A program made the translations under genes and the position numbers. A stretch of DNA of 64,000 nt from Alphaproteobacteria bacterium (lineage in GTDB: Bacteria; Pseudomonadota; Alphaproteobacteria; CAAHEQ01; UBA3637): assembly GCA_045118155.1 (NCBI GenBank), contig JBGUXS010000078.1, positions 443 to 64,442 of the forward strand, read 5' to 3'. Positions 2,199 through 34,897 of this stretch are shown piece by piece; within the stretch, counting starts at the first letter, position 1, and the number at the start of each line of letters is the position of its first letter. Under the pieces are notes generated by a model, which made no database searches, had not been told where the DNA came from, and worked only from the letters and a program-made list of their open reading frames with translations.

Positions 2199-3341
2199 AT
2201 GCAGAAAAAACGCACCTTTATTATTGGACTTATTTGGGGGCTAATCTTCTTTTGGTGGCTGCACAATTTTTTTTACTTGAATTGGTATTTTCGGTTTTAC
2301 AGTCCCAAAGCTTGGGTTTATTTACTTCATGAATTCAAGTACGGTTGGCGGGTACGGGCCGTTTCCGATTGGATCTTTATTTTTACCCTTATTTTCGCAT
2401 TACCTCTGTTTTTCTGGGGGTGGTATCTATGCTTAAAAATCAAATGGTTGGCTCTTTTTAAATGGATAAAAAAACAATTTTTAAAACTTACCAACAAAAA
2501 ATCAACTGTTGTAAAAAAACAAATGAAGTTAGCCGCTAAAAAAAGTGTGCAAAAAGAACGCCCCCCTGCCCTTGCAACCCCCAAAGTAACTAGTCCCGAA
2601 AAGAAAATGCAAAAAATGCCATCTTCTGCCATCAAAAAAGAAGAAATCGATTTAGATTTTTCTGCTAAAGAAGAATTTTTGAAAGAAGAAAACATTCAAA
2701 CGGCACCTCCTGCCAAAGAACATCGGGCCCCGGATCCACCAAAAGGGGGACCTTCTTTCCTATTTGAAGATGATGATATCCCGCAACAAAACAATGATGT
2801 TCGGGCCGACACACTGTTGTCTGAAATAAAAATGCCAGAACGAGAACGAACACAAGAAAATATCCCAGATATTATTCACGCGCATGGCTTTAAGCCCATC
2901 ACGGCCATTGTGCATCCAGATATTTCTTTTGCGGCCGTTTCTTCAGATACCCTTTTGGTTGCTTTTGTGGATGAAGAACCAGGAGATTGGCTAGCCGATG
3001 AAGAAGATTTTGAAGGGGAAGACCCCTTGTGGTTTTCAGAAAGTTTTCATCGGGTTTCCCCAGTTTTTAAACTATTAAAAGTTGCTAAAAAAATCAGGGC
3101 TCAGTTAGAAAATCAAGGACTTTCTCATAAAGTAATTCCTTACTTAATTGAAAAAATGGGAAATATTATTAACGTAGAAGATATGCAAGAAACGTGGAAA
3201 GAACTGGGGGTCATTGTCTGCCGAACAGATGTTGGGGGGGATGAAACATTACCCACAGTAGAAGCTTCTTTCCCGCAAGCAAAAGATGTTGCAGAAGCTG
3301 CTGATTTAGATATAATAAAAGAAATTTTAAAAAAGTTATAG
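2199..3341 (+). CDS. Hypothetical membrane-anchored protein (N-terminal TM helices, Lys-rich linker, acidic C-terminal domain); first gene of the virD4 operon
   Basis: 380-aa ORF preceded by a TATAAT box near 2172. It ends 10 nt before virD4. No recognisable domain. Confidence 0.5.
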   Translation: MQKKRTFIIGLIWGLIFFWWLHNFFYLNWYFRFYSPKAWVYLLHEFKYGWRVRAVSDWIFIFTLIFALPLFFWGWYLCLKIKWLALFKWIKKQFLKLTNKKSTVVKKQMKLAAKKSVQKERPPALATPKVTSPEKKMQKMPSSAIKKEEIDLDFSAKEEFLKEENIQTAPPAKEHRAPDPPKGGPSFLFEDDDIPQQNNDVRADTLLSEIKMPERERTQENIPDIIHAHGFKPITAIVHPDISFAAVSSDTLLVAFVDEEPGDWLADEEDFEGEDPLWFSESFHRVSPVFKLLKVAKKIRAQLENQGLSHKVIPYLIEKMGNIINVEDMQETWKELGVIVCRTDVGGDETLPTVEASFPQAKDVAEAADLDIIKEILKKL

Positions 3342-3350
3342 GGGGAAAAG

Positions 3351-5522
3351 TTGGGCGCCTCTGACGCGATGTACACCGAACGTAAAAAATATACGTACTA
3401 TGTGGCAGCTATCGTAGTACTGGCTCTTTTTGTATCTTGGATAATGCTGTTAATTACAATTCCTTTACAAGCTTTTATCCGTCAAGGGTTAGATATTGAA
3501 GCTTGGAATTACAGTGTTTCCTTTTGGACACATGCTTGGCATCCAAAAGTCATTTTTCAAGTCCTCAATAGTTGGTTTGATTCCCTAAAAACGTTAAAAA
3601 ATCCCCATTGGACTTTATATTTACCCTTTTTATCCTTTTTTATTGGCTTTATCGTTTTAGTGATAGGGCTAAAAAAGAATCCCTTTGAATACACACCAAA
3701 TATTTTTGGGAATGGACGTTTAGCCACTTATGCTGATGTCAAAAAAATGAAATTATTTACTGGGTTCTGCATCGTTTTGGGACGTTTTAAAGGCAAGTTA
3801 TTAAAAATGCCAGAAACCTTAGCGGCCTTAGTTGTTGCGCCACCGGGGACTGGTAAAACCGCTGGGGTGGTGATTCCCACCATTTTTGAATCCCCAGGAT
3901 TGAGTATTATTGTAAACGACCCTAAACCAGAATTATGTTATACCACAACCGGATATCGGGCACAACAAGGGCCTGTGTTCGTTATTAACTGGGGGGCCGA
4001 TGATGAACCAGAAAAAGGGATTTTCTTCCCTAGTTGGAATCCACTTTCTGCTTCATGCTTACCAGCACCAGGTCCCGCCAGAGATATGTACATAGACTCT
4101 ATGGTGGCTATTTTGGTAGAAGTTAATGAAAAAGATCCTCACTGGGGGAAAACTGGGCGAAATGCTATGTCTGGTTTTTTGAACTTTATCGCCAGTAAAT
4201 GTGAACGGGCACTTGCTAACGATTACTTTACTTCACGTTTAATGGACGATTTATTTGATGATGAAGACGCGGCCGTTTTAGAAACATACTATGCGGATAT
4301 GAACGATCCTGATACAGGGTCTGCTTTACAGGCATTAAAAAATGGGTCTATGACACGGGAATCTTACGTCCCTATCGGTACATGGGCGGGGCTACCTTCT
4401 GTTTGGCAAGGAAAAGAACCTTGTATTGCTATGATTTTGGACTGGCTGACGGAAATGCAAATGAAAATCAATGCCGATATTAAACGCCGTATGGATGAAG
4501 GGGATCAAATGGCGGCCATGGCAGACCCCATGCGGGATCTATTGGAAAGTGCCATCAGTGAAGCAGCCCGCTATGGCTATGCCAGACGTTCTGTCACAGA
4601 ACTCAATCAATTATCCGCCACACCGGATAAGGAACGGGGGTCTATTTTATCCACGGCCCTTTCTGGGATCAGTATTTTTAAAAACTCGGCAGTGCGTTCT
4701 AGAACTAAGTTCAGTGACATTACTTTCCGTGATTTACGTGGGATGCGTGATCCTATTACAGGGGAACAAAAACCTATTTCGGTTTATCTATCCGTTAACC
4801 AGGTAGATGCCCAAGCCTTAAATGTCATTACTGGGATTTTTGTTGAATTGATGAGCAGTTTCTTAATCGCGAACCCCCCAAATTTTGTTGGGGCAGGCGG
4901 GAAAAAGGCGGGACCATTTCCTGTTTTATTTGTGCTTGACGAGTTTCCACAAATGCCAAAATTGGATGCTGTGAAAAACGGGCCTGCCGTAGGGCGGGGA
5001 CAGAAAGTTTCTTATTTGCTCATTGGGCAGGATCTTGGACAGATTTCTGGTAAATACGGGAAAGATGATTTGGAAACAATCATTACAACAACAGCCGCTA
5101 AAGTCATTCTTTCTCAAAACAACGAACAAACCGCTGAACGTTTTACAAAAATGATTGGGACTAAAACGATTCAAGTAACAAGTTCTAGCCGAACTGAAGG
5201 GATTTCCAACCAAAATAACCCCTTTGCGGCAAACGTAAGCCGTTCCTACCAAAGCTCAAACGTGGTCCAAGTATCTGATATGATGAGCTTAGATATGCTT
5301 AAACAATACGTTTTATTCCAAGGATATCTAAACCATCCTATCTTAGCGGATGCCCCTCGTTATTACTTAGATAAAGTCATGCAAAAGAAAGCGGCCATTC
5401 CCCCTTCCCCATTTGTTCCGTATTGGATTGTAGCGCAACGGGAAGATACCGATTTAGAAACATTAAAAGCTTTGATGCAAGAGGAATTAGCAGATTTGGA
5501 TATTATCATAGAGGATGAATAA
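3351..5522 (+). CDS. virD4: Type IV secretion coupling protein VirD4/TraG
   Basis: 723 aa. N-terminal TM helices, Walker A VVAPPGTGKTAGVVIPT and Walker B LFVLDEFPQMP. TTG start with a GGGGG Shine-Dalgarno; an alternative ATG lies at 3369. Confidence 0.85.
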   Translation: MGASDAMYTERKKYTYYVAAIVVLALFVSWIMLLITIPLQAFIRQGLDIEAWNYSVSFWTHAWHPKVIFQVLNSWFDSLKTLKNPHWTLYLPFLSFFIGFIVLVIGLKKNPFEYTPNIFGNGRLATYADVKKMKLFTGFCIVLGRFKGKLLKMPETLAALVVAPPGTGKTAGVVIPTIFESPGLSIIVNDPKPELCYTTTGYRAQQGPVFVINWGADDEPEKGIFFPSWNPLSASCLPAPGPARDMYIDSMVAILVEVNEKDPHWGKTGRNAMSGFLNFIASKCERALANDYFTSRLMDDLFDDEDAAVLETYYADMNDPDTGSALQALKNGSMTRESYVPIGTWAGLPSVWQGKEPCIAMILDWLTEMQMKINADIKRRMDEGDQMAAMADPMRDLLESAISEAARYGYARRSVTELNQLSATPDKERGSILSTALSGISIFKNSAVRSRTKFSDITFRDLRGMRDPITGEQKPISVYLSVNQVDAQALNVITGIFVELMSSFLIANPPNFVGAGGKKAGPFPVLFVLDEFPQMPKLDAVKNGPAVGRGQKVSYLLIGQDLGQISGKYGKDDLETIITTTAAKVILSQNNEQTAERFTKMIGTKTIQVTSSSRTEGISNQNNPFAANVSRSYQSSNVVQVSDMMSLDMLKQYVLFQGYLNHPILADAPRYYLDKVMQKKAAIPPSPFVPYWIVAQREDTDLETLKALMQEELADLDIIIEDE

Positions 5523-6064
5523 TGACGGAAGATTTTAAGTTTGAAGATGGTCTAGGACAGGATTATTGGATTCGTGAATTTCATAAAATTCCCTTTCCAG
5601 GAATGGAATTGTTTGAAGTAACTTTTTTTAGACGTATAGAAGGGGCCTATGTGGATAAACATCAGCGCTTTAGAGAAATGGCCGTTGATTTTCTAAAAGA
5701 TTTAGGGAAAGAGGAAGAAGAACTTTATGCTTTTGAATTTTCTGAGGCCGAAGTCGCTTTGATTAAAAAAGGTCGTCTACCAGAAAATTATACTGTCCAT
5801 TTAAAATATCCTTTAGAATACGGTTGTGCATTGATCCCAGAACAATTTGTTTTGATGCCTATTGCCCCTTATTATCGGGATATTAATACTTATATCTTCA
5901 GACAACTTATAACCGATGAAGGAATTAAAAAGCCCCATCACCTTTATGTTCCCACACCAACAGGGCGTATTTATAAACCTTATTCTGGGGATGCAAGTGG
6001 CAGCGGTGGGAAAAGTAATACTTCCCAAATGGCGGCTATGTTTAACCAGGGGCGGGGGCGTTAA
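5522..6064 (+). CDS. Hypothetical 180-aa protein translationally coupled to virD4, with a Gly/Ser-rich, Arg-terminated tail
   Basis: Its ATG overlaps the virD4 stop (TAATG). C-terminus GDASGSGGKSNTSQMAAMFNQGRGR. No known domain recognised. Confidence 0.45.
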   Translation: MTEDFKFEDGLGQDYWIREFHKIPFPGMELFEVTFFRRIEGAYVDKHQRFREMAVDFLKDLGKEEEELYAFEFSEAEVALIKKGRLPENYTVHLKYPLEYGCALIPEQFVLMPIAPYYRDINTYIFRQLITDEGIKKPHHLYVPTPTGRIYKPYSGDASGSGGKSNTSQMAAMFNQGRGR

Positions 6065-6065
6065 T

Positions 6066-6524
6066 ATGAAATTAATACATGTTGTTTTAAAAGCTATTTA
6101 TAAAGATGCCGCTGTTGTTTTTAATCCTGTGGCTTTGACTGATGTTCAAAAGGCCTCTTTTGAAATTGTAAAAAATAAAGGGATTAAAATTCCTAATGAT
6201 TATGCTGCCTTTTTAACAGAAGTTGATGGATTATCCTGGAATGGATTGTATCTTTTTTCCTTAAATGAAAAGGAACGTCAAGATGGCGCTTTTGTGCACC
6301 CTGGCATTCTACAAACATACCATAAGGGCTTAAAAAATCCGATTTTTAAAAACAGGCTTTTATTAGGATACGGCCCTGAAGAAATCATTACATATCATGC
6401 GGGAAAAAAAGAATATCAAATCCTAAGTCAATATGATTACAGAATCCTAGTACGGCTTCCCCGCTTCTTTGATGTACTGTATCACTATACCCATGCTTTA
6501 TTTGAGGATGCCCCTAAGGACTAG
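6066..6524 (+). CDS. SUKH (SMI1/KNR4)-like immunity-type protein
   Basis: 152 aa. The segment IPNDYAAFLTEVDGLSWNGLYLFSLNE resembles the SUKH-1 core. It starts 2 nt after the previous stop. Confidence 0.45.
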   Translation: MKLIHVVLKAIYKDAAVVFNPVALTDVQKASFEIVKNKGIKIPNDYAAFLTEVDGLSWNGLYLFSLNEKERQDGAFVHPGILQTYHKGLKNPIFKNRLLLGYGPEEIITYHAGKKEYQILSQYDYRILVRLPRFFDVLYHYTHALFEDAPKD

Positions 6525-6931
6525 GACAAATCTTGCTTAACATGTGGCGTTTGCAAAAGTTCTTCAATGTGATCGGCCACTTCTAAGGAAGTATCTTTTT
6601 TAAAGATTAAATCTGGCACAATTCTTAACCGGATTTCTTTTCCAATGCGGTAACGAAAAAGGCCTTTATGTGCATTTAACAACTTCACTTGTTCATTCAC
6701 ATCAATTCCCCCGATACCATTTACAAAAACACTTGCGTAACTCAAATCTGGGGAAATGTTAGCTTGTGTGATTTGTAAAGCCCTTGGTTTTAAACCTGAA
6801 ATAAACAAATCCTCTTTAACCAACATCTGTCCAATTAGACGCCGAATGCTTTCTGAAACCCGAAGTTGCCGTTGTGATTGTTCTGACGTTTTCATAGAAG
6901 CTATTATACCTTTTTTTCTTGTTCCTTTCAA
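6521..6931 (-). CDS. rbfA: Ribosome-binding factor A
   Basis: RbfA-like core; the SESIRRLIGQMLVKEDL motif region is present. The true start may be the internal Met at about 6895. Confidence 0.8.
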   Translation of the reverse strand: MKGTRKKGIIASMKTSEQSQRQLRVSESIRRLIGQMLVKEDLFISGLKPRALQITQANISPDLSYASVFVNGIGGIDVNEQVKLLNAHKGLFRYRIGKEIRLRIVPDLIFKKDTSLEVADHIEELLQTPHVKQDLS

Positions 6932-6939
6932 GAATCTTT

Positions 6940-7680
6940 TTAGAACAAGTATCTAAGCCCCACCAAAACCGTCTGACTTTTATTTTCAACAGAAATCGGA
7001 GTTTTAGAAACTTTATCTGTCAATGAAATACGGCCTGGATCCATATAACGGTACCCTACATCTAAATCCAAATCCCGACCTAAATGTGTCGTGACACCGG
7101 CGGCTACATTCCAAGCCATTTTATACTTCCATGTTTCATGATTATAATGGTTCGTTCCTTTGTCTGATTGAACACGAATACGGGATTGGCTGACCCCGAT
7201 TCCTCCCCCAATATAAGGGCTAAAAGTATAAGAAGGGAACAAATCATAATAGGCATTCAAAAAATAAGTATTCATTTTAATATTGCTTGCCCGAACCCGT
7301 GTTCCATCATCCAACTTAAATACCGCATCCCTTTTCCCATGAGAATTATAGCTACCTTCAAGTTCCGTCCGCACATTTCCAAGCATTGTTTTGACTTGAA
7401 CCCCCAAAGCCCCGCTTAATTCCATCAGCTCATCCTTTTTTTTCTGAGATTGCCCCCCAATAGCGGGTTCAAAATCCCGTCCTTTATAGCCGATTTTTGC
7501 CTCAACATAAACCCGTTGACTAGGTTCCAAAGAATTATCTTTCAGACTCTCTTCCATATATTTGTTCTTATCATCCATCACGTAAAAATCAGTATCTCCC
7601 GCATAAGAGGCATAGTAGACACCAGCTTGTGCGTAATAACTTGACAAAACAAAAAAAGTAAAAATAAGCTTCTTCATCAT
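6940..7680 (-). CDS. Small outer-membrane beta-barrel protein (OmpA/Opa-like porin family)
   Basis: Signal peptide MMKKLIFTFFVLSSYYAQA. Alternating amphipathic strands rich in aromatic residues and Gly. The C-terminal residue is Phe (LVGLRYLF). Confidence 0.7.
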   Translation of the reverse strand: MMKKLIFTFFVLSSYYAQAGVYYASYAGDTDFYVMDDKNKYMEESLKDNSLEPSQRVYVEAKIGYKGRDFEPAIGGQSQKKKDELMELSGALGVQVKTMLGNVRTELEGSYNSHGKRDAVFKLDDGTRVRASNIKMNTYFLNAYYDLFPSYTFSPYIGGGIGVSQSRIRVQSDKGTNHYNHETWKYKMAWNVAAGVTTHLGRDLDLDVGYRYMDPGRISLTDKVSKTPISVENKSQTVLVGLRYLF

Positions 7681-7698
7681 TTCATCCTCCTAAACCAA

Positions 7699-9510
7699 TT
7701 AGTCCCGTGTTACTTCGGGAAGGGTAAAATTATTTTCATCAAAAACACAGTATGTTTCAACCCGGGCGCTTAACGTATTGTCCCCCAAAGTTCCCCCTGT
7801 AAAATTCGTGGAACCCGCCCCCGTAACATAGCCAACTTCTATCCCCCATACTCTGGCAATATCCGCTTCGGTTTCTGCCTTTGCTTTATGAACATTATTA
7901 ACAGCCACAGCCACCGTATAGCGCGACACATTTGCATTTGTGACATTTGTGGTAGATCCATTTGTTACACCTTCAAAACTGTTCAAAACGTCCTTTCCGG
8001 TTGTTCGGATCGGGGTAACCACCAAAGCGGCCTTATATCCGGCCGGGCATGCTGGCGTTGTCACATTTGCCCGCAAGCAATTGTTCGTATATCCACTACA
8101 GTTCCCTAAATTAGCTTCTGTCGTTAATTCGGTAATAGATTTTGAAACATAATTCGGCAAGATATCACTTAATCTCGCCCCACCACGAGAAGCCAACTTA
8201 ACATCATTCATCACAGACGTATAAGCTGGATCTACCTGATAATGATCATACGTTTCTGATTCATTAGCAGCTTGAGCATCCACAAATTCAACGGATGAAT
8301 CAATACCTTTTGCAGACACGACTGCATTTTCTACTAACTGACCATCTGCATCATAAGCATTCAGCGTAACTTTCCCCTTGGAAGATCCATCTGTGGCTTC
8401 TTCAGCTTCGGCCTTTAAGACATCACGTCCGGCACTATCTCTGGTAATAATCTGCCCATTAGCATTGACAATAACCCGACGTTTGCCCGTGGCATCATAA
8501 ACGGTCACTGCCCGCTTGTCATTATCCACAGGATCAGTGGAAATAACGGCCGTTGAAACAAAGGCTTGAATTGTTTCCCCATCGTTCACGGGATCATCCA
8601 TAGAAACCGCTTGACGTCCTACATGCAAATCATTGCGGACATAAACATTCCCCGGGGTTCCTGCCAATCCTTCATCCGTTCCGTTTTCAAGATGTTCTGC
8701 CCCTACCCAAAATAAGGGGGCACATTCTTCCCCTGCATCCAAAATTGTATAACCGGTTGCATCTTTTCTAAAGCAATTCGTATTTCCTTCGCCAATAGAA
8801 AAATAGCTCCAAGCATGCAAGTTTTTGAAAGCGGCTTCATCTTCTAAAGAAGAAAAGAGTGCCCCTTCATCAAATCCAGTAAATGCAACATAAGACGGGC
8901 TTACCACAGGTTCCATCATCAAAGATGCCCCTTCTAATTCCCAAGTTCCCATGGTGCCTACAAAATTATCCCCTTGGACGATACCCCCATCAGCCCCAAT
9001 CAAGGCAGCGATACTAGCCGCCCGCTTTAAATTCCATGTTCCTTGCGGCAGTGCCGATGCTTTAGGTAAGATAACTCCATAAAAAGAGGTCCCAACTTTT
9101 GCCCCTTCCGTATTTTCTAAATTTTTCCCAAAAAGGTAAAAATTGTATTTTTCAGCCGTACTTGATGTCAAAACATCCCCTGTGTACGTGTTATAGGTCA
9201 CTGGTAAGTATGTTGCCACATTTTTCCACAACGTGTTATATGAACAATTGGAAGTTTCTGTTCCAGACAATGCACAAACCCCACCACCGGCTGTGGCTAA
9301 TTCTTCAAGTTGCCTATGTTGCGTTTGGATAAAAGAGGAAAAAGCTTCCTTCATCGTACGCATTTCGGTCGCTACATTAACATTGGCTAGTTCCCGATTA
9401 CGTTGTGCCACTTGCCTATACAAAACAGGTCCCAACACCGCCAAGATCCCTAAGACGGCAATAGCTTCTATCATAATAGACCCAGATTGGGTTTTTACAG
9501 CTTTTTTCAT
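7699..9510 (-). CDS. Large (603 aa) type IV pilin-like / pseudopilin-like protein with a class III signal peptide
   Basis: N-terminus MKKAVKTQSG|SIMIEAIAVLGILAVLGPVLY has a basic leader, Gly at -1, Glu at +5 and a hydrophobic helix followed by Pro/Tyr. The Gly/Thr/Asn/Val-rich body has C-terminal Cys pairs. Confidence 0.55.
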   Translation of the reverse strand: MKKAVKTQSGSIMIEAIAVLGILAVLGPVLYRQVAQRNRELANVNVATEMRTMKEAFSSFIQTQHRQLEELATAGGGVCALSGTETSNCSYNTLWKNVATYLPVTYNTYTGDVLTSSTAEKYNFYLFGKNLENTEGAKVGTSFYGVILPKASALPQGTWNLKRAASIAALIGADGGIVQGDNFVGTMGTWELEGASLMMEPVVSPSYVAFTGFDEGALFSSLEDEAAFKNLHAWSYFSIGEGNTNCFRKDATGYTILDAGEECAPLFWVGAEHLENGTDEGLAGTPGNVYVRNDLHVGRQAVSMDDPVNDGETIQAFVSTAVISTDPVDNDKRAVTVYDATGKRRVIVNANGQIITRDSAGRDVLKAEAEEATDGSSKGKVTLNAYDADGQLVENAVVSAKGIDSSVEFVDAQAANESETYDHYQVDPAYTSVMNDVKLASRGGARLSDILPNYVSKSITELTTEANLGNCSGYTNNCLRANVTTPACPAGYKAALVVTPIRTTGKDVLNSFEGVTNGSTTNVTNANVSRYTVAVAVNNVHKAKAETEADIARVWGIEVGYVTGAGSTNFTGGTLGDNTLSARVETYCVFDENNFTLPEVTRD

Positions 9511-9536
9511 GTGGCATTACCCCCTAATTTTTTCCT

Positions 9537-9565
9537 ATTATACACCTTTTTTTATTAAAAGTCAA
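9537..9565 (-). promoter_or_regulatory. Consensus sigma70 promoter for the pilin-like gene: TTGACT, 17-nt spacer, TATAAT
   Basis: The minus strand reads TTGACTTTTAATAAAAAAAGGTGTATAAT, 27 nt upstream of the start codon at 9510. Confidence 0.55.
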
Positions 9566-14668: not shown

Positions 14669-15059
14669 GGGCCACCAATGAACGTACCCGTTCTACCATA
14701 GAAAAAAAACCATTCCGACGCGTGGGGGATAAATGATCTTCTAGACCTAAATCCTTAAAAATCCGTTCTATATCCAATTCCCGAATAAAAGCAGCTGTTT
14801 GCCCATTAATTAGGGAAAGTAAAATAGCCTCTAACCCCCGTACAATAAAGGCATCGCTATCGGCAACAAAAAAGAACTTATCCCCTTTTTGCTGAACAGT
14901 AATCCACACTTGTGATTGGCATCCTTGGACCTTATGGGCTTCTGTTTTATCTTCTTCTGGCATCGGGGGTAAACTCTGTCCTAATTCAATTAGGTATTGG
15001 TATTTTTCTTCCCAATCCGTAAATAAAGAAAAATTATCAATTAATTCCTGTTCTGTCAT
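14661..15059 (-). CDS. sufE: SufE-like cysteine desulfuration/sulfur-acceptor protein
   Basis: 132 aa with a SufE-like fold signature including a conserved Cys (GCQSQVW). Confidence 0.7.
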   Translation of the reverse strand: MTEQELIDNFSLFTDWEEKYQYLIELGQSLPPMPEEDKTEAHKVQGCQSQVWITVQQKGDKFFFVADSDAFIVRGLEAILLSLINGQTAAFIRELDIERIFKDLGLEDHLSPTRRNGFFSMVERVRSLVAHA

Positions 15060-16462
15060 TCAATGTTTTTTAATCCTTCTAGTGTTAATTTTACCTTTAT
15101 TATATCAACACTGCGATTTTTTTCATCAAAAATACGCTTATCCTCTTGTAAAAAAGGACGTAAGTCTTTTAATAATCCAGCATCTTCAGTAGCTTGACAC
15201 GCTGAATTTTGTAAAAATTCTTTTTCTTGAGGGGTTGTTTGAACCGCCACATTTTGTAAATAGGTTTGCATCAAAGTACATTGTTCTTCATCAATCGGTT
15301 TGGCTGGGGGAGAAATAGCATCAAAATTCCGAATAAGAAATTCAATATCTCCAACGGGTTTTTCCTTTTCAATCTGTCCTGTAAAATGCACATCTATAAC
15401 CGCTTGTACACTTTCCAAACTTCCTTTAACATCCAAATCAGCCCCTTTTAGCAGCCCCCAAGAAAAATCTTTAGAAAGCAATTGTTCTACTAATATTTCA
15501 CGATCAAACTTTTTGGCTTTGATAACTAATTTTCCCTTTTCTGGGATAAACCCTTTGGTCGGGACATTCCCTATACACGCGAATGTTAGGTTAATTTCAG
15601 CTTCCTCCCCCTTAAATTCTACTTGCCCTTCTACCTGCGTTAAAATAATCTTTCTGGGGTAAACGGGAAATACTAAATCCGCCTGTGGTATTTCAAATTC
15701 AATTTTTCCTGTATCCGCCAATAACCATGCATTATGTAAAATAGGGGCTAATCCCTGAAACCGTGCTTTTTCCGTTAAAGAAGCCACCGTCCCTTGCACT
15801 TCTTTCCCCGTAAATGTCAACCCCAAAAGGGAGGCTTTTTGTTCAATAACGGGAACATGCCCCAAAAAAGAAAACATATATTTGCCGTTTGCTTCATCCA
15901 CTTTCAATTGCCATTCGGGGCGCGTCAGGTGTACATGGCTAGCACTCCACCGATCTTCGGCAATCAAATCCCAATACGGGTGCCATTTAAATTCATTTTG
16001 CCACTTTTCAACATAGAAAAAATTGGGTTCAAATACCGCGGTTGCAAAACCTTCTAGTTGTTCTTTTGGGGGAAAGTGTCCCCGATATAACGTCGTCCCT
16101 TCTAATTGCCCATCTGGGGTCAATAATACCCCTTGTGTAGGGAAAGTCATTTCATCCGGTGTTTCTTTAAGTGGCATCCAAACGGTCAGAACTTTTTTCT
16201 TCAAGTCTAAATCATTCTTCACAGATGCTTCTGGCAATATTAAACTTGCTTGATCGGCTCGTTGTTGCAAAACAGCCCCCGAAATCCCCAATGCCTTTAA
16301 CTTCGCCCTTAGGGCCTTAGCCAAAGTATCATGATCCGGTCGTGTCAACACAGTGGATGGGGTTACGTAAGACATAGCATTAGGGAAAAAACGCGTTAAC
16401 ACCGCGCCTTGCAAAGCAACTGCCCCTACAAGAGCCAGACGTCCCAATAATTTTGCTAACAT
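15056..16462 (-). CDS. Hypothetical secreted/periplasmic protein (468 aa)
   Basis: N-terminal signal-like segment LALVGAVALQGAV. No recognisable domain. It is co-directional with sufE-truB. Confidence 0.45.
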   Translation of the reverse strand: MLAKLLGRLALVGAVALQGAVLTRFFPNAMSYVTPSTVLTRPDHDTLAKALRAKLKALGISGAVLQQRADQASLILPEASVKNDLDLKKKVLTVWMPLKETPDEMTFPTQGVLLTPDGQLEGTTLYRGHFPPKEQLEGFATAVFEPNFFYVEKWQNEFKWHPYWDLIAEDRWSASHVHLTRPEWQLKVDEANGKYMFSFLGHVPVIEQKASLLGLTFTGKEVQGTVASLTEKARFQGLAPILHNAWLLADTGKIEFEIPQADLVFPVYPRKIILTQVEGQVEFKGEEAEINLTFACIGNVPTKGFIPEKGKLVIKAKKFDREILVEQLLSKDFSWGLLKGADLDVKGSLESVQAVIDVHFTGQIEKEKPVGDIEFLIRNFDAISPPAKPIDEEQCTLMQTYLQNVAVQTTPQEKEFLQNSACQATEDAGLLKDLRPFLQEDKRIFDEKNRSVDIIKVKLTLEGLKNIE

Positions 16463-27459: not shown

Positions 27460-27758
27460 TGCCACCATTTTTAAGCCCTGATGAAGATTCGTGTCTTTTA
27501 CACATTTTATTGGTTCCTAATGCTAAAGAAAATAAGATTTATGGTCTTTTTAATGAACGATTAAAACTTTATATTTCTGCCCCAGCTGTGGACGGAAAAG
27601 CGAATAAAGCTTTAATTAAATACCTGGCTGATCTCTTTAACCTAAAAAAAAATCAGATTTCCTTGATACAAGGGGAAAGATCCCATCAAAAAACAGTACG
27701 ACTAGATGCCCCTATTGACCACATCTGTACTTGTTTAAGTCAACATATTTCCGTGTAA
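27456..27758 (+). CDS. yggU: DUF167/YggU family protein
   Basis: 100 aa with LKLYISAPAVDGKANKALIKYLADLF, typical of YggU. It overlaps the amiC stop by 4 nt. Confidence 0.65.
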   Translation: MMPPFLSPDEDSCLLHILLVPNAKENKIYGLFNERLKLYISAPAVDGKANKALIKYLADLFNLKKNQISLIQGERSHQKTVRLDAPIDHICTCLSQHISV

Positions 27759-28805
27759 AATACGTGTAATCTCGCTTCCTTGCATCAAAGAAAAACCTAA
27801 GGCTTGGGCTTGTTGTATTTCTTGAGGGGTTTGAATATCAAACAAGATAATTTTTTCTTTAGGATAATTCAAAGTAGCAGCCCATTTCATCTGTTGACTA
27901 TTAATCTTTAGGTAATGCATCGGGATTTTATCCCATGCTAAATAGGATATTTCCTCCGGAATGCGTAATAAAAAGAGGGATTGTTGATAACAAGGTATTT
28001 TTTGAATACTTTGCCATAAATCCCGTTCCCAAAGAAAATCTGATAAACTTATTTCATAAGAAATACCTTGATGTTGATACAATTGGTGCATTTCCTGATA
28101 AACGGGTTGGGTTAAAAGATAAGGACTCGCAGAAAAAACTCCTCCTTGTGTTTTGGGCAATTCCTTTTTTAAAATTTTTGTATACAGCGCATTCTTAAAG
28201 GCCCTTTTCAAATATGTATCAGAATCCAATATCACCTTTGGAAATAGAACTTGACGGACATCAATATCTTTACAAAAAACACTGGTAAATACAGGAACCA
28301 TCTCGGTTAAATCATGAACCTGACAAATGCATTGATGCCGTGTTAAATGTGAAACATCCGCTGTTTTTAGCTCTGATAAAATATGTGTGAGAGTTGGGGT
28401 ATCCAAGGGCAATGAAGGAATTTTTTGAAGCACTTTTAAATCAGAAAAATCTGCTGTTGGGGTTAGCTCTTGATGATTAATTTTATGGATCAAAGCATTA
28501 AAATCTGTGATTAAATTAAAAAATGATAATTTATGTTCTTGGAAAAAGGATTTTTCCAGCCCCTTTAATTTCAAGGAAAGCAACATCATATCCTGTAATT
28601 TATTATGGGCAAAAAAGGCAACGCTATCCCCTTCGCTTAAAAAGAACAATTTCGTTTGATATGTCTGTTCAAAAGAACTCAAAAAATGCAAAAGAACCTT
28701 TTTTTTCTCATCTTCTTTAGGTAAAGGAATATAAAGAGCATGCCCTTTAAATGTTCTTTTTTCAAGATATTTGAGATAGTCAAAAACACTATTATACCGC
28801 ATCAT
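27735..28805 (-). CDS. Hypothetical protein with a degenerate EAL-like C-terminal half (catalytic residues not evident)
   Basis: 356 aa. The C-terminus ...KIILFDIQTPQEIQQAQALGFSLMQGSEI resembles the EAL end motif (AEGVET...QG). No DDFGTG or EAL motif is present. Confidence 0.4.
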   Translation of the reverse strand: MMRYNSVFDYLKYLEKRTFKGHALYIPLPKEDEKKKVLLHFLSSFEQTYQTKLFFLSEGDSVAFFAHNKLQDMMLLSLKLKGLEKSFFQEHKLSFFNLITDFNALIHKINHQELTPTADFSDLKVLQKIPSLPLDTPTLTHILSELKTADVSHLTRHQCICQVHDLTEMVPVFTSVFCKDIDVRQVLFPKVILDSDTYLKRAFKNALYTKILKKELPKTQGGVFSASPYLLTQPVYQEMHQLYQHQGISYEISLSDFLWERDLWQSIQKIPCYQQSLFLLRIPEEISYLAWDKIPMHYLKINSQQMKWAATLNYPKEKIILFDIQTPQEIQQAQALGFSLMQGSEITRILHGNMLT

Positions 28806-29874
28806 ATCCCCTTAAATGTTGCACACACACGCATTGTGATGCTTGATGCGGGATCGCCCCCATTTGCATACACGTTTGTAAAGCACAATCTCCCCCATAT
28901 GGACACGTTTTTTTTCGAGAAGCCGCATGAATCAAATCAATAAAATCACCTTGAAAAAAGGTATATGGGGAAGACAGAATTTGAGTTAATTTTTCTTGCG
29001 TATCCACTCCTGTTACAAAAACAGGAACATGATTGATTGATTGTGTTAAACAAACTTCTACGGGAAGAAGTAAAAAATCAGCTTCTAATAAATCAAAACG
29101 ATAAAAGGCCGTTTCTGCAGTAATGCCCCCAATACCTAACCGATACTGTTTTCCTGGACGAGTTAGGGCTTCCTTATACAGATTTTTATTTAACAAGACT
29201 TCTGCAATATCTAAAATAATCCAAACTGGGTCATTATTTTCAATCCAAGCACTTTCCAACGTTCCTTGCACCATCAAAGGCAATGTCGTTTGTTTAAACA
29301 GCTCTTTATTTGGGTGTTGCAATAATTGTTTCTGTATTTTCTGAACTAACCACATTGGAAGCTGATCCATATTGTTTTTTAAGGTCCATGTATATCCCCA
29401 CAGAGAGTTGCTCCCCTTTTGATAAATTACCCGCCTAAACCAACTATTTTTTTCGGGAATATCTTTTAAAAAAGCCTCATAATCAACCTCTTGATTCGTT
29501 TGCTTTTTAGCTATCTGAATCAGGGACAAAACCCCCATCAAATCCTGTGGTAAATGGAACAAGCGTACATTTTCTTCTTTTTTTCCTGTTTGAATTTGAA
29601 AAAATGTTTGAATTTGGCGCATCACATCCACAACTTGATGTTCATCAAGATCAACCCCTATTAATAAACGATCTTGTTGTTCAAATGTAAAAAGCCGACA
29701 ATATTCATACGCTAATAACGGTTCTAATAAATGTTCTATGACGTGCATCAACCTTTCGGCCCCTGGCAGACCTAATAATTGACTTGTCCCTATCCAAAGG
29801 ACAACCGACGGTGTTTCTAAAGCAGCGACACGCTTTATTGTTTCTAAGGCCAGTTGTTCTTGTGTCTCATACAT
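28792..29874 (-). CDS. Hypothetical protein with a degenerate EAL-like C-terminal half and a Cys-rich tail
   Basis: 360 aa. The segment ...YRLGIGGITAETAFYRFDLLEADFLLLP...VFVTGVDTQEKLTQILSSPYTFFQGDFI is EAL-like without catalytic residues. The tail reads CPYGGDC...C.C. Confidence 0.4.
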   Translation of the reverse strand: MYETQEQLALETIKRVAALETPSVVLWIGTSQLLGLPGAERLMHVIEHLLEPLLAYEYCRLFTFEQQDRLLIGVDLDEHQVVDVMRQIQTFFQIQTGKKEENVRLFHLPQDLMGVLSLIQIAKKQTNQEVDYEAFLKDIPEKNSWFRRVIYQKGSNSLWGYTWTLKNNMDQLPMWLVQKIQKQLLQHPNKELFKQTTLPLMVQGTLESAWIENNDPVWIILDIAEVLLNKNLYKEALTRPGKQYRLGIGGITAETAFYRFDLLEADFLLLPVEVCLTQSINHVPVFVTGVDTQEKLTQILSSPYTFFQGDFIDLIHAASRKKTCPYGGDCALQTCMQMGAIPHQASQCVCVQHLRGYDAV

Positions 29875-29980: not shown

Positions 29981-31951
29981 ATGCATTACTTAACAGGGGA
30001 AGAAGTTTCTGTCACATCCTTAAAAACAATAGCCCAAGAATTTGGTTTTATGTTGTGGCCGCACCCCGATGATCCTTTCTTATTGCATAAAACACCCTAT
30101 CAAAGTTTTCCAGAAATGCTTTCTGTCCTTACAGATCATATTACAGAAAAAAAACTTAATTCCCTCTTCACTTTCCCTGTTTCTTTCATCTTAGATGCGA
30201 ATGCACAATCTGAATCCTTACATAACTTCTTTAAATATCAAGCCCGTAACCAATTGGATAAAACCATCGGTGTCTTGCTAACTTGCCCCGTTATTTACGC
30301 CTGTGATGTTGCGCAAATTTTTACCGAAGCCTTACATCAACGATTACACTTTCCTAGCACACGTTACAGTAATATTCATATGGCTATTCATGAAGCGCTC
30401 GTCAATGGTTTAGTGCATGGAAATCTAAAACTACCTAGTTCTTTACGGCAATCAGCTCGTGATTTCGTTGATTACGCCCGCATTGTTAATGAACGCTTAT
30501 TAGACCCTGCCTATGCTAATAAATCCATCAGTATTTGGGCTACTTGGAATACCTCTAGATTGGAAATTAAGATTCGGGACGAAGGGGCTGGATATACGGT
30601 TTTACCCCCCCATAAAAAACATGTGGCAGAAAAACGTTCTGGACGGGGGCTTTATCTAATTGCCGGAACTGCTGATTCCTGCACAATTGATGATTTTGGG
30701 CGAGAAATCACATTATCTTTTATTCTAAATAATCTAAACAACGAACAAGATATCGGGGTTTCTGAAAATGCGGCTTTACTGCATGATCCTGTAACCGATT
30801 TTTCGGATTGTCGTATTTTAATCATTGAAGATAACCCCAGTAATCAAATCTTGGTTTCACAACTTTTAAACGTGGTTGGAATTGGTCATATTGAAACAGC
30901 TCAAGATGGGGTTGAAGGCCTTGAAAAAGCATTCAGTATGAAACCAGACTTAGTCATTTTGGACATCACTATGCCCCGAATGAATGGATATGAAGTACTT
31001 CACCAACTCAGAACAAATCAAGATACGGCCTCTATCCCGGTTTTAATTCAAACGGCTTCTGATACACGGGCAGCACGGGATAAAACTTTTAGTGCGGGGG
31101 CAACAGACTTTATCACAAAGCCATTAAATCCTTTGGAATTTTTCTCTCGGATACGGGTACACTTAGAAAATAGATTACTTGTAAAACATCTTGAAACGAA
31201 ACTCGCTCAAATCAATGAAGAACTAGAACTTGCCCAAAAAATGCAAGAAAGTTTATTACCCCCCACGGAAGCACTTCAAGATATCAGCCAACGTTATCAT
31301 CTAGATATTTCTTATACGTTCTTACCTTCTTCCCATTTAGGGGGGGATTTCTGGCAAATTTTTCCATTGGCTAAAGATAAGGTCGCTTTTTATATTTGCG
31401 ATTTTTCGGGACATGGGGTAAGTGCTGCCATGAATACGTTCCGATTACACACCTTAATCGGGCAAATGGATATGACGGCATTGAAAAAGCCTTCCGAATT
31501 TCTTTTTATGCTTAATAATTCTTTGGTCAACTTGTTGCCCAGGGGACAATTTGCTACTTTCTTCTTTGGTATTTTAAACAAGCGACAAGGAACATTAACA
31601 TATGCTGGGGCCAGTTCGCCCTTCCCTATTTTGGTTAAGGACAACAAACCCTCTTTCTTAGATACTTCCGGGATGCCTTTGGGAATTTTAAAGGACGTTA
31701 CTTATAAAGATAAAAAGGTACCATTTTCCAAAGAAATGGGCATTTTACTATACAGTGACTCTTTCACTGAACAACAAAATAAAGAAGGAAATCGCCTTGA
31801 TTATGATGGTTTTATGAAAATGACTCAGACGTGTTTCTCAGAAAAAACATCTCAACAAGTCATTGCCCAAATCATGCAAAAATTTCATGAATTTTCTGAC
31901 ACCCCTAGTACCGATGATATTACGGCTGTCTATTTGAAAGGCCTCTTATGA
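29981..31951 (+). CDS. Fusion protein: RsbW/SpoIIAB-like GHKL Ser kinase domain, CheY-like receiver domain and PP2C (SpoIIE/RsbU-like) phosphatase
   Basis: N-terminal region HMAIHEALVNGLVHGN...RDEGAGY...GRGLYLI (HATPase_c_2-like). Middle region ILIIEDNPSNQ...PDLVILDITMPRMNGYEV...TKP (REC). C-terminal region HLGGDFWQ...FYICDFSGHGVSAAM (PP2C). Confidence 0.7.
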   Translation: MHYLTGEEVSVTSLKTIAQEFGFMLWPHPDDPFLLHKTPYQSFPEMLSVLTDHITEKKLNSLFTFPVSFILDANAQSESLHNFFKYQARNQLDKTIGVLLTCPVIYACDVAQIFTEALHQRLHFPSTRYSNIHMAIHEALVNGLVHGNLKLPSSLRQSARDFVDYARIVNERLLDPAYANKSISIWATWNTSRLEIKIRDEGAGYTVLPPHKKHVAEKRSGRGLYLIAGTADSCTIDDFGREITLSFILNNLNNEQDIGVSENAALLHDPVTDFSDCRILIIEDNPSNQILVSQLLNVVGIGHIETAQDGVEGLEKAFSMKPDLVILDITMPRMNGYEVLHQLRTNQDTASIPVLIQTASDTRAARDKTFSAGATDFITKPLNPLEFFSRIRVHLENRLLVKHLETKLAQINEELELAQKMQESLLPPTEALQDISQRYHLDISYTFLPSSHLGGDFWQIFPLAKDKVAFYICDFSGHGVSAAMNTFRLHTLIGQMDMTALKKPSEFLFMLNNSLVNLLPRGQFATFFFGILNKRQGTLTYAGASSPFPILVKDNKPSFLDTSGMPLGILKDVTYKDKKVPFSKEMGILLYSDSFTEQQNKEGNRLDYDGFMKMTQTCFSEKTSQQVIAQIMQKFHEFSDTPSTDDITAVYLKGLL

Positions 31952-32655: not shown

Positions 32656-32831
32656 CGTAGTTTTTCCTCACAGCAACACTTTTCTTCAACAAACCATATA
32701 CGATCTTCAAATTCGGATTTTTTCCCCTTATTGAATTGGCTAACAGGACGAAAATACCCCATAACCCGTGTCCAACATTCCACCGCTTGACGTTCATTAG
32801 AAAATTTTTCTAAAATTTGGTTATCTGTCAT
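32643..32831 (-). CDS. Stand-alone glycyl-radical domain (C-terminal piece of class III ribonucleotide reductase)
   Basis: 62 aa with TRVMGYFRPVSQFNKGKKSEFEDR, matching the NrdD glycyl-radical signature RVCGY...FNxGKxxE. Its ATG overlaps the nrdD stop (ATGA) and AAGGAG lies 8 nt upstream. Confidence 0.6.
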   Translation of the reverse strand: MTDNQILEKFSNERQAVECWTRVMGYFRPVSQFNKGKKSEFEDRIWFVEEKCCCEEKLRQAV

Positions 32832-34897
32832 GCTTTGTTCTCCTTTTCTGCAAGTTCTTGACGTTTTTTTTCAATGAGTTCCGCATCACACTTTGGGCAG
32901 AACTTGTGTTCCCCACTAATATACCCATGCTTGGGGCAAATAGAATAGACAGGGGTAATAGAAACATAAGGAAGATGATAATTTTCTAATACCCGTCTAA
33001 TAAGTGATTTACAAACACTTGCTGAAGAAATCCGTTCATTCATATACAGGTGCAAAACCGTTCCCCCTGTATACTGTGTTTGCAATTCATCTTGATAATC
33101 CAACGCTTTAAACGGATCATCTGTGAAGTTCTGTGGTAATTGAGAAGAGTTTGTATAATAGGGGGCCTCTTTCTTTCCTGCTTGAATAATACCAGGATAG
33201 CGTTTTTGATCTTCTTTGGCAAAACGATATGTTGTCCCTTCAGCTGGCGTTGCTTCCAAATTGTACATATTTCCTGTTTCTGCTTGGAAATCCAGCATTT
33301 TTTCCCGAATATGTGTTAAAAATTCTTTAGCCATCGCCCGCCCTTTTTCCGAAGCAATGTATTCTTCATCATTAGTAAAGTTCCGAATCATTTCATTAAT
33401 ACCATTAACCCCAATCGTGGAAAAATGATTTCGGAATGTTCCTAAATATCGCCGTGTATAAGGATACAACCCCCGATCCATGTGCATTGAAATGGTTTTA
33501 CGTTTAATTTCTAAGGAAGTCTTCGCTAATTCCAGTAATTCATCCAAACGTTTATACAATTCCTCTTTCTTCCCCTTATACAGGTATCCCAAACGGGCAC
33601 AGTTAATTGTAACAACCCCAATAGACCCCGTTTGTTCTGCTGAACCAAATAAACCACCACCTCGTTTTTTCAATTCCGTCAAATCCAACCGTAACCGACA
33701 ACACATTGAACGAATATCTGAAGGCTTCATATCAGAACTAACATAGTTTGAAAAATAGGGTAATCCATATTTAGCCGTCATTTCAAATAACAATTCCGTA
33801 TTTTCAGAATCCCATGGGAATTCATTTGTAATATTGTATGTCGGGATAGGGAAAGTAAACGGCCGCCCTTTGGCATCCCCACTTCCCATAACTTCTAAAT
33901 AAGCCCTATTAATCATATCCATTTCTTTTTGCAGATCACCATAAACAAAATCTTGTTCCACCCCCCCAATGATAGGGTGCCGATTCTTCAAATCTTCAGG
34001 GCAATTCCAATCAAAAGTTAAGTTCGTAAAGGGTGTCTGTGTCCCCCAACGCGATGGTACATTCAAGTTAAAGATGAAGGATTGCATCGCTTGTTTTACT
34101 TCTTCATAAGGTAATTTTTCAATTCGTATAAATGGTGCTAAGTACGTATCCACAGAAGAAAACGCCTGTGCCCCAGCCCATTCATTCTGCAAAGTCCCCA
34201 AGAAATTAATCATCTGGCTAAACGCAGAAACAAGGTGTTTTGGCGGTTTAGATTCTGTCTTATTGGGAACCCCATTAAAACCTTCTTCTAATAAAACCCT
34301 TAAGGACCACCCTGCACAATACCCACTCAACATATCCAAATCATGAATATGATAATCCCCATTTCGGTGAGCTTCCCCAATTTCTGGCGTATACACGTGG
34401 CTCAACCAATAATTGGCCACCACCTTTCCTGCCGTATTTAAAATCAATCCCCCTAAGGAATATCCTTGATTAGCATTTGCGTTCACCCGCCAATCTGACC
34501 GATCTAAATATTCATTAATAGAAGCCACCGCATCAATAACCGTTTTCTTATCATTCCGCATTTTTCCGCGTTGTTCACGGTACACGATATAAGCCCGGGC
34601 AGTTTTGTAATAATTAGAGGAAATTAAAACCTGTTCAACCACATCTTGAATTTGCTCAATATTAGGATAAACCCCGAAAGCAAACCGATGCTTTAAAACC
34701 TTAATAACTTGTCTTGTTAATAACCACGCTTCATCTTGACCGAATTCAGCCGTTGCTTCCCCAGCTTTCAAAATAGCAACCATAATTTTAGTCACATCAA
34801 ACGGATACTGTTGCCCATCCCGTTTAATTACATAGCTCAACGGACTAATATCAATGGTTACATTTAGCGGCTGGGCTCCTGTCAAAACTTGCAACAT
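32828..34897 (-). CDS. nrdD: Anaerobic ribonucleoside-triphosphate reductase large piece (ATP cone through zinc ribbon), lacking the glycyl-radical domain
   Basis: 689 aa with an ATP-cone N-terminus and the NrdD catalytic core. The C-terminal zinc ribbon reads CPKHGY...CPKCD. The ORF ends at an A8 tract. Confidence 0.85.
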   Translation of the reverse strand: MLQVLTGAQPLNVTIDISPLSYVIKRDGQQYPFDVTKIMVAILKAGEATAEFGQDEAWLLTRQVIKVLKHRFAFGVYPNIEQIQDVVEQVLISSNYYKTARAYIVYREQRGKMRNDKKTVIDAVASINEYLDRSDWRVNANANQGYSLGGLILNTAGKVVANYWLSHVYTPEIGEAHRNGDYHIHDLDMLSGYCAGWSLRVLLEEGFNGVPNKTESKPPKHLVSAFSQMINFLGTLQNEWAGAQAFSSVDTYLAPFIRIEKLPYEEVKQAMQSFIFNLNVPSRWGTQTPFTNLTFDWNCPEDLKNRHPIIGGVEQDFVYGDLQKEMDMINRAYLEVMGSGDAKGRPFTFPIPTYNITNEFPWDSENTELLFEMTAKYGLPYFSNYVSSDMKPSDIRSMCCRLRLDLTELKKRGGGLFGSAEQTGSIGVVTINCARLGYLYKGKKEELYKRLDELLELAKTSLEIKRKTISMHMDRGLYPYTRRYLGTFRNHFSTIGVNGINEMIRNFTNDEEYIASEKGRAMAKEFLTHIREKMLDFQAETGNMYNLEATPAEGTTYRFAKEDQKRYPGIIQAGKKEAPYYTNSSQLPQNFTDDPFKALDYQDELQTQYTGGTVLHLYMNERISSASVCKSLIRRVLENYHLPYVSITPVYSICPKHGYISGEHKFCPKCDAELIEKKRQELAEKENKA

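Follow-up and report, generated by a model that had tools for sequence, protein, structure and literature searches.

More than 1,200 modular pilins with 264 architectures have been described, reaching up to 860 amino acids (aa), and display of their additional modules at the filament tip has been proposed (PMC8179133). CofB consists of a pilin domain, a beta-repeat domain and a beta-sandwich domain (PMC8179133). Type IVb minor pilins such as CofB, TcpB, LngB and PilV of R64 are single, large proteins (about 400-520 aa); they start or cap a filament and bind targets. Here we analyze a gene in a 64-kb stretch of an alphaproteobacterial contig (JBGUXS010000078.1; the whole stretch is referred to as the window), whose 603-aa product, like the S. 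sanguinis modular pilins PilB and PilC, combines a class III signal and a pilin helix with large C-terminal modules. We consider, with moderate confidence, that this gene encodes a modular minor pilin displaying beta-rich C-terminal modules on a type IV filament. While oversized pilins are known as a kind, the family to which the protein belongs has no name and escapes current pilin signatures.

Class III signal and pilin-type helix

The gene and the N-terminus of its product are exactly as given in the original prediction: the open reading frame (ORF) runs from 9510 to 7699 on the minus strand, and its translation starts with MKKAVKTQSG|SIMIEAIAVLGILAVLGPVLY (whole start, MKKAVKTQSGSIMIEAIAVLGILAVLGPVLY). 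The following parts can be delineated (window coordinates):

7699..9510, minus strand: coding sequence of the 603-aa type IV pilin-like modular protein (ORF; homologues; ratio of non-synonymous to synonymous substitution rates [dN/dS], 0.089)
9481..9510, minus strand: predicted leader peptide, aa 1-10 (MKKAVKTQSG), with a predicted cut after Gly10 (conservation in 234 of 239 homologues)
9322..9480, minus strand: alpha-1 helix of the predicted mature protein, aa 11-63, including Glu15 at position +5 (nucleotides 9466-9468) (AlphaFold2 [AF2] model, hydrophobicity, alignments)
8866..9510, minus strand: conserved N-terminal domain (N-domain), aa 1-215, a long helix followed by a beta-sheet (AF2; predicted local distance difference test score [pLDDT] 84, predicted template modeling score 0.78)
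8149..8232, minus strand: most conserved segment of the family, aa 427-454 (DPAYTSVMNDVKLASRGGARLSDILPNY) (mean column conservation 0.82, many invariant residues)
7741..8151, minus strand: C-terminal beta-rich domain, aa 454-590, with the invariant Cys488/Cys588 pair (AF2 secondary structure, alignment)

Type IVa pilins and pseudopilins of type II secretion systems (T2SS) share the pattern (Q/E)(K/R)G|xxxxE around the cleavage site. Motif statistics were derived from 239 homologues, collected down to about 30% identity, 234 of which bear the motif. The family follows this pattern apart from a small residue at +1. Gly at -1 and Glu at +5 are found in all 234 motif-bearing sequences (234 of 239 overall), Glu at +5 being invariant in two family alignments as well; position -3 is Glu or Gln in 233, and position -2 is Lys, Arg or Ser in 191, with Gln or Ala in most of the others. 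Ala at +8, Gly at +14 and Pro at +18 are common, and the leaders are short and basic, usually 8-14 residues long. Position +1 is occupied by Ser (118 sequences), Ala (107) or Thr (8). The usual +1 residue is Phe or Met in type IVa pilins and T2SS pseudopilins, it is variable in type IVb pilins, and Ala, Val or Thr are usual in Tad pilins; the residues of the family at this position fall in the range of Tad-type substrates. The E. coli GspG signal that was used in our alignments, for instance, reads KQRG|FTLLE.

The topology of the N-terminus agrees with such a signal. The 603-aa protein contains one hydrophobic stretch, at roughly residues 7-35, and no small-x-small signal peptidase I (SPase I) site follows it; for lack of such a site, the reading as an ordinary Sec signal was rejected. 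In the AF2 model, residues 7-63 form a continuous helix with a pLDDT of 88-96, which then gives way to a beta-sheet.

Profile comparisons consistently led to pilins, at low scores. A profile of the N-domain searched against all Protein Data Bank (PDB) sequences gave six matches with E < 10, of which four are pilins: three Geobacter PilA-N sequences (E 0.0036, 0.044 and 0.069), aligned in register, and PilE1 (E 0.11), for which the alignment was not shown; "in register" refers here and below to every pilin alignment that could be inspected. Among 35 family members compared with NCBIfam, sub-threshold matches were obtained to GspG in 28 (best E 6.2e-6), to ComGE in 11 and to ComGG in four; the window protein itself matches ComGG below the cut-off with an E value of about 0.001-0.003. 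Direct profile alignment (hhalign) with E. coli GspG extended over 59 columns in register (E 2e-4), covering the leader and alpha-1. In addition, one family member is annotated as "pseudopilin PulG" by the JGI. The Pfam methylation-motif family PF07963 was not matched by the window protein at E <= 1 and by two of the 35 members at 0.077, and none of the 35 members matched TadE (PF07811) or Tad (PF13400) at E <= 10.

A class III signal and a pilin-type alpha-1 helix are therefore well supported, because signal conservation, topology and weak but consistent in-register pilin matches agree. The class III signal proposed in the original prediction is upheld on each of these grounds: the invariant Gly-1 and Glu+5 in 234 of 239 homologues, the single hydrophobic stretch, the helix spanning residues 7-63 and the register of the pilin alignments.

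The body of the protein and its family

The most notable residues in the composition of the protein are Ala (11.1%), Val (9.8%), Thr (9.6%), Gly (9.1%) and Asn (7.1%), and it contains eight cysteines (positions 79, 89, 246, 263, 471, 478, 488 and 588), of which Cys246, Cys263, Cys488 and Cys588 are invariant in the family. The full-length AF2 model has a pLDDT of 78. In the family alignment, conserved blocks cover residues 1-60 and 151-175 (…LKRAARIAxLIGADGG…GTxGxW), and Gly172, Gly185 and Trp190 are invariant residues of the N-domain, the model of which gave no significant match when compared with the PDB by Foldseek. Further along, a run of beta-hairpins occupies residues 334-410 of the model, and a single-layer sheet of the OspA type was weakly matched over about 100 residues (Foldseek probability 0.99-1.0, E 0.016-0.04). 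The segment of aa 427-454, the most strongly conserved one, is modeled with low confidence. Taken together, the architecture comprises a class III signal with a helix of about 55 residues, a conserved beta domain of about 150 residues and then about 390 residues of beta-rich, disulfide-containing modules.

The gene is real, constrained and under purifying selection, evolving faster than the core genome and fastest at its C-terminal end, as judged from sequence comparisons. In comparison with the relative L001 (82% identical; L numbers denote loci of the family), dN/dS is 0.089 over the whole gene as opposed to 0.02 for pnp, rpsI and virD4, and the identity to the relative L007 is 45% for the pilin-like protein, 52% for the barrel protein encoded downstream (see below) and 81% for VirB4. 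The C-terminal domain is the fastest-evolving part, with a dN/dS of 0.15 in codons 501-600 and the lowest identity to L001.

The original prediction had missed that the protein belongs to a very large uncharacterized family, and that the gene which usually accompanies this family is absent from the window (see below). A word-indexed search yielded 124 homologues and an exhaustive HMMER scan 479 representatives at 50% identity; when GTDB was scanned with one genome for each species, 290 genomes proved to encode the family. Every carrier is an uncultured alphaproteobacterium of the gut or rumen, CAG:495 among them, and the hosts include humans, ruminants and rabbits, among others; the original description of the bacterium as host-associated is fair in that homologues come only from metagenome-assembled genomes of gut or rumen. 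Since the best match to the window protein among GTDB representatives is only 36% identical, the window species is absent from these representatives, and a metagenome scan yielded nothing but short, near-identical contigs. Look-ups of exact sequences gave no record for the 603-aa protein or for two proteins encoded near the ends of the window. Family proteins are between about 440 and 1400 aa long, with most of the variation following the N-domain. The 603-aa protein has no match above threshold in Pfam or NCBIfam, the family is named in no database, and a literature search on RF32 and pili found nothing relevant. Searches of plasmid and phage collections with the protein (tblastn) gave zero matches, and there is thus no sign of a mobile-element origin of the gene.

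Partner genes, promoter and genomic setting

Clustering of the neighbors across 88 family loci revealed a single conserved neighbor, a gene on the same strand directly upstream of the pilin-like gene in 73 of the 88 loci (for example L002:8480-9985, L005:9297-9986 and L065:9182-9967, all plus strand). Its product is 200-600 aa long, starts with a leaderless membrane helix and shows the signature M-x-[FY]-W…P-R-x-D…A-E…F-V-x-Q-H-Q-A-A-K-D-Y; in the long forms, a LamG/concanavalin-type lectin domain is often found at the C-terminal end, and the product has no family name. By hhalign, this partner shows no detectable homology to the N-domain of the pilin-like protein or to GspK. No homologue of it was detected anywhere in the 64-kb window by tblastn. 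The window and its three closest relatives (L001, L007 and L008) all lack the partner and have a barrel gene directly 3' of the pilin-like gene instead. The surroundings of the pilin-like gene in the window comprise the following elements:

6940..7680, minus strand: coding sequence of an outer-membrane beta-barrel protein, 246 aa (OMP_b-brl, 8.9e-11, above cut-off)
6931/6895..6521, minus strand: rbfA, 3' of the barrel gene, with its own promoter-like site
9537..9565, minus strand: sigma-70-like promoter TTGACT-17-TATAAT, 11/12 consensus positions (pattern scan and reading)
9520..9525, minus strand: Shine-Dalgarno-like G run about 9 nucleotides before the ATG (read from the sequence; TTAGGGGGTA kept in L001)
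9663 (start), divergent: bPH_2 gene upstream of the 603-aa gene (Pfam)

The barrel gene is as originally described: its ORF (7680..6940) starts 18 nucleotides after the stop codon of the 603-aa gene on the same minus strand, and its product matches OMP_b-brl above threshold (PF13505; 42.7 bits, cut-off 28.7). It also matches Opacity (30.6 bits, cut-off 21) and Surface_Ag_2 (24.8 bits, cut-off 22). Membership in the OMP_b-brl family rests on the score above the gathering threshold together with a Sec signal (…YYAQA|G) and a terminal aromatic residue; the protein reads MMKKLIFTFFVLSSYYAQA|G … GLRYLF. Furthermore, residues 55-244 align with positions 26-222 of the 224 positions of the NCBIfam model Rick_Adr (NF052636; E 5.8e-12). 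Because the score of 45.7 bits is far below the cut-off of 210, the barrel protein is a distant relative rather than an Adr orthologue.

Orthologues of the barrel gene lie directly 3' of the pilin-like gene in L001, L007 and L008, and the pair is kept in two genomic settings, beside rbfA and virD4 in one and after virB3-virB4 in the other; in L007 (2208-4939) and L008, the pair directly follows virB4. The barrel gene is thus a real conserved partner within the clade of the window. The barrels encoded close to more distant members of the family are paralogues with only about 30% identity, and a wider association between the two families may thus be due to chance. That the pair adjoins type IV secretion genes in both settings of the clade may go back to one ancestral arrangement.

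In the window, the type IV secretion genes are dispersed, with virD4 at 3351-5522 (plus strand) and virB3-virB4 at about 53.5-56.2 kb (plus strand), 50 kb apart. No virB6-virB11 genes are found beside virB3-virB4 or virD4 in the window, a dispersed layout resembling that of Rickettsiales. A 180-aa ORF that matches no family (5522-6064, plus strand) overlaps the virD4 stop codon with its start codon, and is followed by a gene for a 152-aa SUKH/SMI1- and YrhA-like protein (6066-6524, plus strand; NCBIfam YPO0640_fam, 7e-13, below cut-off). These two genes after virD4, which are conserved in L001, could be a type IV secretion effector/immunity pair. Just 5' of virD4, a 380-aa protein with several N-terminal membrane helices and a charged, low-complexity middle part is encoded.

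The promoter had originally been described as a perfect consensus. The TTGACT-17-TATAAT sequence is indeed present, but it matches 11 of 12 positions only and is no commoner than chance: sites with at least 11/12 matches number four in the whole 64 kb, with about 3 +/- 2 expected, so that the match alone is not significant. The element ends 26 nucleotides 5' of the ATG of the 603-aa gene, a GGGGG Shine-Dalgarno-like run lies in between, and L001 has kept both hexamers and the Shine-Dalgarno run while the spacer has changed. Based on this position and on the conservation of the hexamers and Shine-Dalgarno run in L001, it is reasonable to regard the element as the promoter of the 603-aa gene. 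L007 and L008, in which the protein is 45% identical, show no such site; there, the gene begins 66 nucleotides after virB4. Another promoter-like site with 11/12 matches (TTGACA-18-TACAAT; 9142-9171, minus strand), which may be due to chance, lies inside the 603-aa coding sequence about 340 nucleotides past the start codon.

The original prediction had noted that no pilB, pilC, pilD or GSP genes are nearby, and this holds across the 64 kb, in which Pfam searches covering nearly every ORF of 120 aa or more, a scan for the GxGDxK motif and tblastn with a type IVb set found no T2SSE, T2SSF, secretin, Peptidase_A24, Tad or Gsp gene. A second class III protein was not found in the window either; the only other regular-expression match was an internal stretch of MreB. 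Among the relatives, two loci contain a complete R64/Tcp-like type IVb pilus cluster (L065:14559-21181 and L073:1007-8875, both minus strand) at a distance of 0.4-3 kb from the family gene and convergent with it. These clusters encode T2SSF, T2SSE, a 300-aa protein, PAP_PilO, a secretin with Secretin_N_2, and TcpQ. Moreover, about 16 of the 88 loci encode a second class of class III proteins, with N-termini G|RSMVEMLGVLAIIGVLS or G|RSMVEMLGVLAIIGVLSVGG and lengths from 86 to more than 1000 aa (for example L065:1082-1483, minus; L065:13042-14460, minus; L027:17227-20274, plus; L019:3275-5659, minus), one with EGF-like repeats. Both class III processing and type IV filaments thus belong to the repertoire of this group of bacteria, as seen from the clusters in L065 and L073 and the roughly 16 loci with other class III proteins, and large pilin-like proteins seem to be common in the lineage.

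The remaining gene content of the window was assessed by the same Pfam searches. It is mostly of the housekeeping kind (pnp, rpsI, rplM, truB, bamA, lpxD/A, mreBCD, gatAB, dnaE and nrdD), with an additional resistance-nodulation-division (RND) efflux set. NrdD, the anaerobic ribonucleotide reductase (32828-34897, minus strand), is consistent with an anaerobic life in the gut. At 29981-31951 (plus strand), a HATPase_c_2 anti-sigma-type kinase, a response-regulator receiver and a SpoIIE phosphatase are fused in one ORF. Four ORFs lack a Pfam match (356, 360, 468 and 380 aa; 27735-29874, minus; 15056-16462, minus; 2199-3341, plus); the 468-aa and 380-aa ORFs, the two of the four that were scanned, have no NCBIfam match either.

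Interpretation and comparison with known systems

If the 603-aa protein is a modular minor pilin, an A24 prepilin peptidase encoded elsewhere in the genome would cut it after Gly10, and the mature protein (N-terminus SIMIE…, with Glu at +5) would be held in the inner membrane by its alpha-1 helix until type IV machinery incorporates it into a filament. There, it would most likely serve as a low-copy tip or initiator subunit, comparable to CofB, TcpB or PilV of type IVb pili, with its C-terminal modules displayed for binding. The pilin-like and barrel genes would be co-transcribed from their own promoter, the barrel providing a second surface protein distantly similar to Adr of Rickettsia.

Several observations weigh against this interpretation. 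Ser or Ala at +1, in place of the usual hydrophobic residue, is atypical of type IVa pilins and T2SS pseudopilins, all matches to pilin hidden Markov models (HMMs) stay below curated thresholds, and conservation extends into the hydrophilic half of alpha-1 to a degree that is unusual among pilins. Foldseek comparison of the full-length and N-domain models with the PDB yielded no significant pilin match, TcpB appearing at rank 21 with a probability of 0.12. No prepilin peptidase or filament machinery is encoded in the 64 kb, none is found in the 9-17 kb around the three closest relatives, and machinery lies nearby in only two to three of the 88 loci. Finally, the gene is mostly found among housekeeping genes together with a dedicated non-pilin partner, a combination that could point to a filament-independent role.

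Such a role is the core of the best-surviving alternative, which we regard as possible, albeit on the unlikely side: a pilin-derived envelope protein outside any filament, anchored permanently in the inner membrane by its helix, whether cleaved or not, with a long beta-rich body spanning the periplasm. As part of a fixed trans-envelope or surface structure, it would cooperate with the inner-membrane partner in most lineages and, in the lineage of the window, with the co-encoded barrel. The membrane-anchored non-pilin partner directly upstream in 73 of 88 loci and the mostly housekeeping neighborhoods devoid of machinery would be expected of such a protein. Likewise, the conserved hydrophilic part of alpha-1 and the motif at aa 427-454 suggest fixed protein contacts, and the barrel gene travels with the pilin-like gene across two contexts in the clade. 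What an envelope protein of this type hardly explains is an invariant cytoplasmic Gly at -1 combined with Glu+5 in a membrane helix, features that are difficult to account for without recognition by a peptidase and packing of the filament type; in addition, relatives do possess type IVb machinery and many other class III proteins.

The T2SS pseudopilin and plain Sec readings are less likely than this envelope protein. A large minor pseudopilin of a T2SS-like system, which would cap a periplasmic pseudopilus in the manner of GspK and push or select cargo, appears improbable. GspG provides the best HMM matches (28 of 35 members), the leader is of the short T2SS/type IVa kind and one member carries the JGI name PulG, but the GspG matches cover the N-terminal helix only, no gsp genes occur in the window or the 88 loci, and the only machinery seen is of type IVb, with PAP_PilO and TcpQ. 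Moreover, proteins of 600-1400 aa in which the C-terminal modules evolve fast are more in line with display than with a periplasmic location. That the N-terminus is an ordinary Sec signal, removed by SPase I from a secreted or periplasmic protein that resembles pilins by coincidence, is very improbable and was rejected: a basic n-region ahead of a hydrophobic stretch is what any Sec signal has, and no curated pilin model is matched at threshold, but the stretch is about 21 residues long, holds a conserved Glu, lacks a small-x-small site after it and runs on as one helix to residue 63, while Gly-1 and Glu+5 are invariant in 234 sequences and the inspected pilin alignments are in register.

More speculatively, the family and its dedicated partner (an inner-membrane protein in most lineages, the barrel in that of the window) might form an undescribed envelope system derived from type IV filaments that operates without a canonical adjacent pilus machine, the giant protein being either processed and displayed or envelope-spanning. 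In the clade of the window, this system might be functionally tied to the scattered VirB/VirD4 genes, which it adjoins in both known settings, as a contact or target-recognition fiber, similar to R64 PilV in conjugation; we consider this combination quite unlikely.

In any case, the family is one of the conserved, probably surface-related features of uncultured and almost unstudied gut Alphaproteobacteria, and the conserved partner gene and the invariant 28-residue motif offer experimental handles. Should the protein be a displayed modular pilin, it would be a candidate antigen of the whole lineage as well as a candidate organelle for contact with host or prey, and the size range of modular pilins would widen to include proteins of 500-1400 aa that current signatures miss.

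Among the described proteins, GspG gives the best HMM matches, yet the likeness is limited to about 60 N-terminal residues, and a gsp operon is seen neither in the window nor in the 88 loci. GspK sets a precedent for an enlarged minor pseudopilin; the profile of the upstream partner shows no similarity to it, the pilin-like protein itself not having been compared. The barrel protein resembles Adr1 and Adr2 of Rickettsia in that it matches Rick_Adr over nearly the full length, carries a Sec signal and ends in an aromatic residue. Adr proteins act as surface adhesins or confer serum resistance, and they are not known to be paired with a pilin-like gene.

With CofB, the window protein shares a loose likeness in its model, in which the hairpin-repeat stretch of residues 334-410 precedes the C-terminal beta-rich domain of residues 454-590, and the two relatives that adjoin an R64/Tcp-like cluster with PAP_PilO, TcpQ and a secretin recall a type IVb setting. 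On the other hand, there is no significant sequence or Foldseek match to CofB or TcpB (TcpB probability 0.12), and the window gene is not part of a pilus operon; even in L065 and L073, the cluster is convergent with the family gene and thus not in the same operon. Leaders of type IVb pilins are long, whereas that of the family is short and of the type IVa/T2SS kind. Compared to the modular pilins at large, the family is missed by IPR012902/PF07963, with sub-threshold scores, and its extra modules match no known domain. It is further set apart by Ser or Ala at +1, by a location away from pilus genes in nearly all loci and by its dedicated non-pilin partner.

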